Shown: positions 112-9,424 of the stretch, piece by piece | Position numbering within the stretch: the stretch's first letter is position 1 | Layout of the letters: the number at the start of each line of letters is the position of its first letter | IMG/VR virus record: IMGVR_UViG_2563366805_000008 | From: a virus | Taxonomy: Duplodnaviria; Heunggongvirae; Uroviricota; Caudoviricetes | Length of the DNA stretch: 9,424 nucleotides | Reading direction: 5' to 3' (one strand) | Translations under genes and position numbers: made by a program | Notes under the pieces: model-generated | Told to the model about the DNA's origin: nothing | What the model saw: the letters and a program-made list of their open reading frames with translations, nothing else | The model's database searches: none

Positions 112-435
112 ATGGATGCTGGCGTTCTCGTTCTAGCAGTTCAACAATTCCCAATCACAAAACAATTCACTGATAACGAACTTTGCACACTCGCCTGGTT
201 ATGGCGAGCAGGGAATGTGATGTTAATTGCCTACCAGAACGTTACTCATCTTCTTCAGGATGCGGAGCATGGTGAGGCTGGTCACTTCACTTCCATCGAG
301 CAAGAATATCCCCAGATACTCAACAGAGCGCGAGCAATCCTCGCCCGAGAAACGGCACATGTAAAACTTCAGCCGTGGCAGGATGATAAGTGGAGTCGAG
401 TATTGCCGCATTTACCTCAGAATCTGTTTCAATAA
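112..435 (+). CDS. hypothetical protein (107 aa), no family recognised
   Basis: Open frame from ATG 112 to TAA 433-435; in-frame stop TAG at 100-102 just upstream, so it is not the tail of a longer gene in this frame. G+C looks near the local average. No motif I can assign. No obvious Shine-Dalgarno checked. Confidence 0.35.
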   Translation: MDAGVLVLAVQQFPITKQFTDNELCTLAWLWRAGNVMLIAYQNVTHLLQDAEHGEAGHFTSIEQEYPQILNRARAILARETAHVKLQPWQDDKWSRVLPHLPQNLFQ

Positions 436-453
436 AGGCGCTAGTTAGTAAGG

Positions 454-479
454 CTTCCGTCATTCTGCGATGACGGAAG
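454..479. other. perfect 10-bp inverted repeat / stem-loop (CTTCCGTCAT-tctgcg-ATGACGGAAG)
   Basis: Read directly: 454-463 is the reverse complement of 470-479, 6-nt loop. No U-tract on either strand, so more likely an operator-type palindrome or RNA structure than an intrinsic terminator. Confidence 0.4.
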
Positions 480-548
480 TGCGGGCTGCGTACGGGAGAG
501 CAATTGTATGAATAATATAAATATTCCGCTCACTCCATATAGCGATTT

Positions 549-595
549 CTGATACAAACTTATCTATTGTGGTAAAATTATAGAAACAAACTTAT
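549..595 (+). promoter_or_regulatory. candidate sigma70 promoter for the HNH gene: -35 CTGATA (549-554), 18-bp spacer, extended -10 TGgTAAAAT (570-578), flanked by direct repeats ACAAACTTAT (554-563 and 586-595)
   Basis: Pattern match by eye only. The TG lies at the -15/-14 positions relative to the TAAAAT hexamer. The two 10-bp direct repeats are 32 bp apart and bracket the -10 element. Confidence 0.3.
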
Positions 596-609
596 AGCGT
601 ACTAACCAT

Positions 610-3458: not shown

Positions 3459-3597
3459 TATGCCAATTGTTTACTAAAAATTATTAAAAATGGGGCGTTG
3501 AGACGCCCCCAAAAATAAAGGGTAATATATAACAGAAGGTTTATATAGTTAGAAGCAAGGTTGTGCTTCTAAAGGAAGTGGCTTGAGGGAGCCACTT
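3459..3597 (+). promoter_or_regulatory. putative late promoter PR'/qut interval downstream of Q
   Basis: By lambdoid architecture PR' lies just 3' of Q and upstream of tR'. Candidate -35 TTGAGA (3498-3503) and -10 TAATAT (3523-3528) with a non-optimal 19-bp spacer. Two further hairpins at 3549-3572 and 3576-3597 resemble the structured 6S-like leader. Exact promoter position not resolved. Confidence 0.35.
3485..3509 (-). terminator. putative intrinsic terminator for the minus-strand porin transcript (GGGGCGT-ctca-ACGCCCC followed by ATTTTT on the minus strand)
   Basis: 7-bp GC-rich stem at 3492-3509 read directly; on the minus strand it is followed by a T5 run. Lies about 140 nt downstream of the porin stop. 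Confidence 0.4.
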
Positions 3598-8839: not shown

Positions 8840-9424
8840 ATGGCATTCAGAATGAGTGAACAACCACGGACCATAAAAATTTATAATCTGCTGGCCGGAA
8901 CTAATGAATTTATTGGTGAAGGTGACGCATATATTCCGCCTCATACAGGTCTGCCAGCAAACAGTACCGATATTGCACCGCCAGATATTCCGGCTGGCTT
9001 TGTGGCTGTTTTCAACAGTGATGAGGCATCGTGGCATCTCGTTGAAGATCATCGGGGAAAAACCGTCTATGACGTGGCTTCCGGCGACGCGTTATTTATT
9101 TCTGAACTTGGCTCGTTACCGGAAAATGTCACCTGGTTATCGCCGGAAGGGGAATATCAGAAGTGGAACGGCACAGCCTGGGTGAAGGATACGGAAGCAG
9201 AAAAACTGTTCCGGATCCGGGAGGCGGAAGAAACAAAAAACAGCCTGATGCAGGTAGCCAGTGAGCATATAGCGCCACTTCAGGATGCTGTAGATCTGGA
9301 GATCGCAACGGAGGAAGAAACCTCATTGCTGGAAGCCTGGAAAAAATATCGGGTGTTGCTGAACCGTGTTAATACAACAACTGCACCGGATATTGAATGG
9401 CCAACAGTACCCATTATCGAATAG
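8840..9424 (+). CDS. tfa: tail fiber assembly protein Tfa (194 aa), in frame with the upstream J remnant
   Basis: [49 protein letters not shown]... through ...[11 protein letters not shown] matches remembered lambda/e14 Tfa over its full length. ATG 8840; stop TAG 9422-9424 at the window end. No good SD upstream, and a TAA at 8838-8840 in another frame suggests a relic of the former stf stop. Confidence 0.75.

Follow-up and report, generated by a model that had tools for sequence, protein, structure and literature searches.

A probable terminator relic joined to a putative extended -10 promoter in front of a cargo gene in the nin region of a lambdoid Escherichia coli prophage

The systems closest to the locus described here are phage morons, a concept that goes back to Juhala and Hendrix; the extended -10 (TGn) sigma-70 promoters of E. 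coli, of the galP1 type, which work with a poor -35 element; and binding sites that overlap a promoter. The last are exemplified by the TTGC-N6-TTGC direct repeats at the -35 region that are recognized by lambda CII, and by the homing endonuclease I-TevI, which autorepresses its own promoter. A moron possesses its own promoter and terminator, deviates in GC content from its surroundings, and is present in some relatives and absent from others ('The moron comes of age', PMC3594210).

We analyzed a stretch of 9,424 nucleotides (the window), with emphasis on the interval 436-609, for which a sequence-only reading had proposed a structured control region upstream of an HNH gene. All coordinates below refer to the + strand of the window. 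A chromosomal prophage of E. coli 210205630 contains the window with 100% identity, and the interval resides in the nin region of this DLP12/phage-82-like lambdoid prophage. The gene order starts with the replication genes, emrE, ybcK, an ORF with the P22AR C-terminal domain and the gene of a 260-aa 'hypothetical protein', and continues with ybcN, ninE, ybcO, rusA, ylcG, quuD, a porin gene, the lysis genes and the terminase. Each feature pointed out in that reading, that is, the inverted repeat, the direct repeats, the TGgTAAAAT element and the two TATAGCG copies, was found where it had been placed. The main value of the present analysis lies in a correction of what they amount to: not one regulatory unit, but a mosaic joint in the nin region. 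With a confidence somewhat better than even, we read the interval as a composite, in which a relic of the terminator of the upstream module is joined to the promoter of a cargo cassette; this reading rests on the homology of the trailer, the structures, the shift in GC content and the positional conservation of the -10 element.

The ORF upstream of the interval (112-435; 107 aa; TAA at 433-435) is the C-terminal remnant of a P22AR/Rha-type antirepressor gene, as it is matched by Pfam P22_AR_C (E=5.8e-14), phrog_7640 and Ant PHROGs, in agreement with the RefSeq annotation at the identical locus. Similarity between the window and phage Turner stops at around 416-436, near the stop codon of this ORF, and is back at 1403. 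The GC content is 57% in 436-486, 32.5% in 487-609 and 41% in the cargo ORF, with flanks of 43-48%. With 430-612 as the query, blastn was run on 5,426 E. coli genomes and on 50,697 phage records; it detected the whole interval in 81 of the E. coli genomes, and the segment with the putative promoter (487-609) was matched, in both databases, solely together with the same cassette. The right flank (1403-1465), where similarity to other prophages resumes, lies ahead of a ylcH/orf33-like ORF. The sequence TTGATT-17-CATAAT at 1403-1431 is promoter-like and precedes a hairpin of 12 bp (1433-1465; fold of -20 kcal/mol, z=-5.68), which belongs to the flank and has no T-run; the phage 82 record X92588 annotates these right-flank elements as putative -35/-10 sequences and a 'possible regulator-binding site'.

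The cassette thus delimited spans about 0.9 kb (about 487-1402); phage Turner and the sibling prophages described below carry other genes in its slot. Like phage morons, it consists of a single cargo gene that is present or absent at the same slot in collinear, related lambdoid prophages; its GC content is lower than that of the flanks; a promoter-like element of its own precedes the gene; and a hairpin lies between the upstream gene and the cargo. Unlike them, it has no downstream terminator of its own, as the stop codon ends at 1392 and only 10 nt lie between it and the conserved flank that begins at 1403; its upstream hairpin lacks a U-tract, and its promoter is a predicted one. The cassette is therefore not a textbook moron in that a downstream terminator is missing. 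This particular cassette has not been described before, although its architecture is of a known kind, that of an ordinary moron.

The G+C-rich segment at 436-486 is the trailer of the P22AR/Rha-type gene. It contains a perfect inverted repeat of 10 bp with the arms CTTCCGTCAT (454-463) and ATGACGGAAG (470-479), which are complementary at 10 of 10 positions and separated by a spacer of 6 nt. In the RNA fold, the hairpin (453-480) comprises 12 pairs (453-464/469-480) with a free energy of -20.7 kcal/mol (z=-2.56), and it starts 18 nt past the TAA codon. A stable, G+C-rich stem-loop soon after a stop codon is one hallmark of an intrinsic terminator; the other, a T-run next to the stem, is found neither on the + strand, where TGCGGGCTGCGTACGGG comes after the stem, nor on the - strand. 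That the palindrome is no canonical terminator, as had been noted from the missing U-tract, holds. In dinucleotide shuffles, perfect inverted repeats with arms of 10 bp or more and a loop of 3-10 nt arose with P=0.001 in the 174-nt interval and with P=0.07 anywhere in the 9.4-kb window. Given the low shuffle probability and the homology described next, the inverted repeat is probably real rather than a product of chance.

The same reading had considered the palindrome an operator or another part of the control region of the HNH gene, and here we depart from it. The palindrome lies within the 51-bp trailer, and in the blastn comparison window positions 430-486 were 84% identical to DNA that flanks P22AR/Rha genes in phage PhiR26_1 and in another 177 E. 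coli genomes, so that by homology it would go with the 3′ flank of the upstream gene. We also do not place it as an operator of the HNH-like gene because about 118 bp lie between its center and the predicted transcription start downstream, which puts it beyond the normal positions of operators and activator sites. In 38 kb of prophage DNA and chromosomal flank, the half-site ATGACGGAAG has no further copies beyond the chance level.

We refer to the haplotype of the window as type A and to that of the sibling prophages, which have a different cassette, as type B. In type B, the slot is occupied by another gene, encoding 169 aa, and alignable similarity with type A ends at around 487. The homologous stretch of type B, CTGCCAGCATTCTGCGATGACGGAAGTGCTGGCA, is followed by T6-8 and folds into a bulged stem of 13 bp and a subsequent U-run (U8), with a free energy of -20.8 kcal/mol (z=-4.37). 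Judged from these features, the type B trailer is a canonical intrinsic terminator; a simple terminator scan did not flag it because the stem is bulged. The type B terminator (for example in PhiR26_1 and E. coli O104:H4 2011C-3493) and the hairpin of the window have in common their homologous position, 18 nt past the stop codon, the core ATTCTGCGATGACGGAAGTGC, and an equal stability. The window hairpin differs in its pairing register, its left arm being paired with sequence that forms the loop in type B, and in lacking the T-run, a defining feature of a terminator.

The difference in register can be traced to single nucleotides. The left arms of the window and type B differ at exactly three positions, which are those where the type B arm is mismatched against ATGACGGAAG, the loop sequence of type B. 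Each of the three substitutions yields a new Watson-Crick pair with ATGACGGAAG, and the outcome in the window is a new, perfect stem of 10 bp, with the old 3′ arm and the T-run missing. By a back-of-envelope estimate, made post hoc, three of three substitutions would perfect the stem by chance in about 1 in 3,240 cases. Such coordinated substitutions fit either selection for a hairpin or a single template switch at a quasi-palindrome, whereas independent mutation is unlikely; the mechanism of quasi-palindrome template switching has been reviewed (PMC7202029). An IMG/VR scan with the shared core gave 55 stretches, which fell into the two haplotypes with zero intermediates. In a tally of 58 loci, made up of those from IMG/VR and four type B loci from other collections, 18 were type A and 40 were type B, and each haplotype was always accompanied by its own cassette.

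From the position and homology that it shares with the type B terminator, the palindrome would represent a remodeled terminator hairpin of the upstream module. It sits at the place of the intrinsic terminator of the siblings, the three substitutions in its left arm would have re-paired it with the sibling loop sequence, and the old 3′ arm and the T-run would have been lost at the junction with the cassette, leaving a terminator relic. Such a relic may serve at most as an RNA hairpin that stabilizes the 3′ end of upstream transcripts or causes pausing, and would be no operator. It would also provide a small natural example of a terminator hairpin in which three coordinated substitutions brought about another pairing register, which would be compatible with quasi-palindrome template switching.

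The three coordinated, stem-perfecting substitutions could also mean that the hairpin is under selection. It might then be functional in itself and have been kept when termination was lost, as a U-tract-independent terminator or pause site, as a processing or stabilizing site, or as a palindrome bound by a protein such as the neighboring YbcK-type recombinase or a Rha/Ant-related protein. We consider this unlikely. That all three substitutions create Watson-Crick pairs, that stability is maintained (-20.7 versus -20.8 kcal/mol), and that the local chance probability of the repeat is low (P=0.001) would agree with it, as would the invariance of the stem in 18 of 18 type A loci, but these loci are nearly clonal and their invariance carries no weight. 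A single template switch at a quasi-palindrome would perfect the stem without any selection (PMC7202029), the occurrence of ATGACGGAAG elsewhere in the 38 kb is at chance level, and there is no Rfam match. Rfam searches gave nothing in the interval, either by E-value in 1-1700 or at the gathering threshold in the whole window.

Downstream of the relic, the AT-rich segment 487-609 (32.5% GC), delimited by its composition and by the end of the alignment, would form the 5′ non-coding part of the cargo cassette. A simple promoter scan identified CTGATA-18-TAAAAT with an upstream TG at 549-578, which matches the consensus hexamers at 9 of 12 positions. The -35-like hexamer CTGATA (549-554) matches at 4 of 6 positions and is separated by an 18-bp spacer from the -10 hexamer (573-578); the extended -10 element TGgTAAAAT (570-578) ends 31 nt before the ATG. 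As in the extended -10 promoters of E. coli, the TG is one base upstream of the hexamer, which has A at its second and T at its sixth position, and the -35 is weak. Transcription would be predicted to start near 585.

We then compared the upstream regions of orthologs. A TGnTAnnnT element (TGRTARAnT) ends 30-31 nt before the ATG not only in the window but also in the ortholog lineages L003/L008, L005 and L006, whose proteins are 75-79% identical to that of the window and whose upstream DNA is not alignable with 487-609. Shuffles gave a chance of 0.002-0.005 per lineage for this position of the motif, and the joint chance is about 1.3e-5 if two further lineages are counted as independent. The simple scan found no two-hexamer promoter in the ortholog upstream regions, where the putative promoters are predicted from the TGn-10 element. 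In more distant homologs, the order is upstream gene, hairpin (followed by a T-run in L072), TATAAT-like element and gene. The conclusion that the HNH-like gene has a promoter of its own, with an extended -10 element, is thus supported by a -10 position that is kept in three other upstream regions where the DNA is unalignable. Compared with the described extended -10 promoters, the one proposed here is predicted from its sequence, with the same design at the same distance from the ATG in the orthologs. It would be a clean example of how a lambdoid nin-region cargo gene keeps a minimal promoter of the extended -10 type at a constant distance from its start codon when all the surrounding sequence has been replaced.

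The leader predicted from this start would be about 25 nt long (about 585-609) and unstructured, since 585-660 folds to only -4.2 kcal/mol (z=+0.59). No Shine-Dalgarno sequence precedes the ATG in the window, and none does in the three other close lineages. The short leader without a Shine-Dalgarno sequence suggests that the cargo gene is translated at a low level. We rejected a riboswitch or attenuator in this region, as the fold of 480-625 (z=+1.09), like that of the predicted leader, was no better than those of shuffled sequences. An ORF of 14 codons (MNNINIPLTPYSDF*) is found at 508-552, with GGGAGAG (494-500) in front of it; it was read from the sequence, is not annotated in RefSeq, and is probably fortuitous.

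The cargo gene is oriented like the entire early-right operon, and it could be a nin gene without a functional promoter, read from the early-right promoter in lytic growth, with the motifs being neutral sequence at a mosaic joint. Promoter-like matches number 6 in 1-1700, which exceeds the shuffle expectation of 3.4 no more than about twofold; the ATG has no Shine-Dalgarno sequence; and the gene appears dispensable, given that IS elements disrupt it in 2 of 18 IMG/VR copies. The conserved position of the -10 element in three further, unalignable upstream regions, with a joint chance of the order of 1e-5, argues against this possibility. So does the gap in front of the gene: in every case in which homologs of the 260-aa protein were traced to contigs, a non-coding gap preceded them and their place was the nin region of a lambdoid prophage, whereas the neighboring nin genes are mostly tightly packed or overlapping. 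In addition, a terminator-like hairpin precedes the gene in several lineages and would block its expression in the absence of antitermination. On balance, a gene without a promoter of its own seems quite unlikely.

We next address the direct repeats that had been interpreted as repressor sites. The decamer ACAAACTTAT occurs at 554-563 and 586-595, with a start-to-start spacing of 32. Allowing one mismatch, the repeat extends to 13 nt (GAtACAAACTTAT at 551-563 and GAaACAAACTTAT at 583-595). Both copies overlap core promoter elements and together they flank the -10 hexamer: copy 1 (GATACAAACTTAT) covers the -35 region, from about -34 to -22, and copy 2 (GAAACAAACTTAT) covers the predicted start, from about -2 to +11, and makes up the first half of the short leader. 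In dinucleotide shuffles, direct repeats that are exact over 10 nt or more and lie within 60 nt had a probability of 0.009 in the interval and of 0.335 anywhere in the window; the observed repeat is marginal once the scan of the whole window is allowed for. TATAGCG, which occurs at 538-544 and 593-599, is at chance level, as shuffles of 436-609 contained about 1.07 repeated 7-mers on average. An origin of the repeats from a 32-bp tandem duplication was rejected, as outside the 13 nt no more than about 6 of 19 positions are identical between the two 32-nt units.

The arrangement invites a model in which a dedicated repressor binds both ACAAACTTAT copies, at the -35 region and at the start site, three helical turns apart, with the palindrome as a further operator or RNA element. 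The repeats match exactly over 10 nt and at 12 of 13 positions overall, their 32-bp spacing puts both copies on one face of the helix, with the extended -10 element between them, and the repeat content of 530-615 exceeds that of shuffles, in addition to the local P=0.009; tight control would also make sense for what is probably a nuclease gene. As a pair of motif copies on one helix face, covering the -35 region and the start, they resemble the sites of lambda CII and I-TevI, but the resemblance is positional, as no cognate protein, conservation or additional sites accompany them. No counterpart of the repeat was found in the ortholog upstream regions (L003-L008 and L072-L079), including those of the closest orthologs. 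The proposed search for the repeat elsewhere in the prophage turned up no further copy: the window has none, and the 38 kb that cover the same prophage together with its chromosomal flank consist of two stretches of 19 kb, one (L002) without a third copy and the other (L081) with a single one-mismatch match, under the chance expectation of 1.6. The cI/cro-like intergenic region of this prophage has AACC-N2-GGTT-type palindromes, putative operators read by eye, which are unlike the direct repeat. There is no regulator gene within or adjoining the cassette, the window-wide chance of 0.335 weighs against the model, and the palindrome would belong to the trailer of the upstream gene, far from the predicted start. 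These findings make a dedicated repressor improbable, and the suggestion that the repeats regulate expression of the gene is supported by nothing beyond their placement.

Pairs of ACAAACTTAT at a distance of 10-40 nt were present at no fewer than 80 loci in an IMG/VR scan; a regulon was rejected, as those among the matches listed outside the cassette were unrelated repeats, coding or in tandem, whose spacings were scattered. A comparison by eye with the consensus sites of host factors showed nothing convincing for DnaA, IHF, CRP, CpxR or OmpR.

The case against the repeats as operators is one of absence of evidence, and nothing refutes them, in a cassette that is nearly clonal. The 18 IMG/VR copies of type A vary at only two sites in 436-609 (440 in one copy, and 507 T>C in 14), and relatives of the protein are lacking between 99% and 79% identity. 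The next relative, at 79%, has unalignable upstream DNA, which leaves nothing for phylogenetic footprinting. We regard the 13-nt repeats as probably fortuitous, and they may equally be a lineage-specific promoter-proximal sequence. If the promoter is regulated, silencing by H-NS of AT-rich foreign DNA would be as plausible as a dedicated repressor. A combined scenario, in which the repeats are a genuine operator pair, for example with the HNH-like protein as an autorepressor in the manner reported for I-TevI, and the hairpin was rebuilt as a needed, non-terminating 3′ hairpin, is conceivable but very improbable; if true, expression of the nuclease cargo gene would be kept very low in the lysogen.

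The explanation that we favor, and consider moderately probable as a whole, is a terminator relic followed by the private promoter of a moron. Segment 487-609 would be the 5′ end of an AT-rich moron cassette with its own sigma-70 extended -10 promoter and the weak -35 element CTGATA, from which the HNH-like gene may be expressed at a low level in the repressed prophage, independently of the early-right transcript. What is said here on promoter activity and the start site, on the lost termination and on the repeats being without function is inferred from sequence.

The cargo protein itself (gene at 610-1392) belongs to phrog_6544, a widespread and uncharacterized family of unknown function. The designation 'HNH gene' is only weakly supported. 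The N-terminal region of about 80 residues is HNH-like, with a candidate zinc-finger nuclease domain: HNH PHROGs match the protein with E=6e-4, and in Foldseek searches with an AlphaFold model (pLDDT 91.4) this region resembled McrA (probability 0.93) and Cap5 (0.8), with non-significant E>0.05. The Pfam HNH score, 14.4 bits, is under the cut-off of 21.4. The beta-rich, C-terminal remainder of the model had no Foldseek match and appears to be a novel domain. A PDB sequence search and NCBIfam gave nothing for the protein, libraries of defense systems gave a weak match to PtuB alone (E=0.04), and no paper was found on WP_001301145. Its homologs comprised 307 matches in Enterobacteriaceae, Burkholderiaceae and others, and a scan of genome contigs added one relative. 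The protein, with an HNH-like and a novel beta-rich domain, may well be of greater interest than its promoter. In related prophages, the neighboring or alternative cargo of the slot includes a gene annotated as PD-lambda-1 and a RES-domain gene.

The core of the trailer (436–486) of the P22AR/Rha-type gene upstream of the 260-amino-acid cargo gene exists in the form of two mutually exclusive hairpins, one in the window (454–486) and the other in sibling prophages with a different cassette at this site (type B; L012, 2516–2570, and likewise L013–L015). In the window, CTTCCGTCAT pairs with ATGACGGAAG. In type B, TGCCAGCA(TTCTG) pairs with (CGGAA)gTGCTGGCA, and a T-run is present. Exactly three coordinated substitutions, all of them in the left arm, are required to change the type B hairpin into the window hairpin, and a tally of 58 loci, made up of IMG/VR hits and four loci fetched earlier, contained no intermediate between the two forms. 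The switch from one hairpin to the other may represent a natural quasi-palindrome template-switch event.

As a regulatory palindrome, the inverted repeat at 454–479 is outranked by a stronger candidate in the conserved right flank (1403–1465). There, a promoter-like element, TTGATT-17-CATAAT with an upstream TG, is followed on its 3′ side by a 12-bp perfect hairpin, AAGTCACCGGAG/CTCCGGTGACTT (−20 kcal/mol, z = −5.7), which lacks a T-run and lies upstream of a ylcH/orf33-like ORF. The phage 82 record X92588 labels this right-flank stretch a “possible regulator-binding site”. Two further perfect hairpins, TTAGAAGCA/TGCTTCTAA and AAGTGGCT/AGCCACTT, adjoin each other at 3549–3597, in the stretch separating the Q (quuD-like) gene from the 3′ end of the porin gene, which is on the minus strand. 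These hairpins are probably part of the late-promoter/terminator region or the porin terminator.

Ahead of the cargo gene, a 14-codon ORF (MNNINIPLTPYSDF and a stop codon; 508–552) is preceded by GGGAGAG at 494–500. Its start resembles the first codons of the main gene (MNNINI vs MDNINK) and its end falls within the −35-like hexamer (549–554). The ORF is probably a chance product of AT-rich DNA. No Shine-Dalgarno sequence was recognisable before the ATG in the four closest lineages (window 579–609 and the leaders of L003/L008, L005 and L006), whereas the more distant homologs L004 and L075 have a strong one (GAGGTG, AGGAGGGG).

The 260-amino-acid protein (610–1392) belongs to phrog_6544, a family widespread among the prophages of Enterobacteriaceae, Burkholderia, Comamonas and Vibrio. 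The structure model is confident (pLDDT 91). Its first ~80 residues appear HNH-like, with weak resemblance to McrA and Cap5, and residues ~92–250 are predicted to form an all-beta domain, for which no PDB match was found. Type B prophages carry a different, itself unclassified, 169-amino-acid cassette in this slot. Separately, PhiR26_1 has a PD-lambda-1 gene ~1.7 kb upstream, and in Enterobacter the homolog has a RES-domain gene on its downstream side. A defence role for the 260-amino-acid protein is possible.

Two of the 18 IMG/VR copies diverge abruptly from the window within the HNH-like gene (L027 at window ~1371, L034 at ~1243), and by eye the new sequences are putative insertion-sequence (IS) elements. 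If they are truly IS elements, the gene would be dispensable, or counter-selected, in some strains.

Behind the cargo gene, more distant homolog loci have about 650–1,050 nt without a called gene. Such tails span L072 2036–3075, L073 2783–3444, L075 2786–3510 (short ORFs only), L077 2792–3477 and L005 3783–4628; the window cassette has no comparable tail. The tail could be a small gene or RNA partner missing from the annotation. Elsewhere in the window, Rfam IS009 matches 9183–9381 (+) inside the terminase large-subunit ORF (225 bits, E = 5.6e-56).
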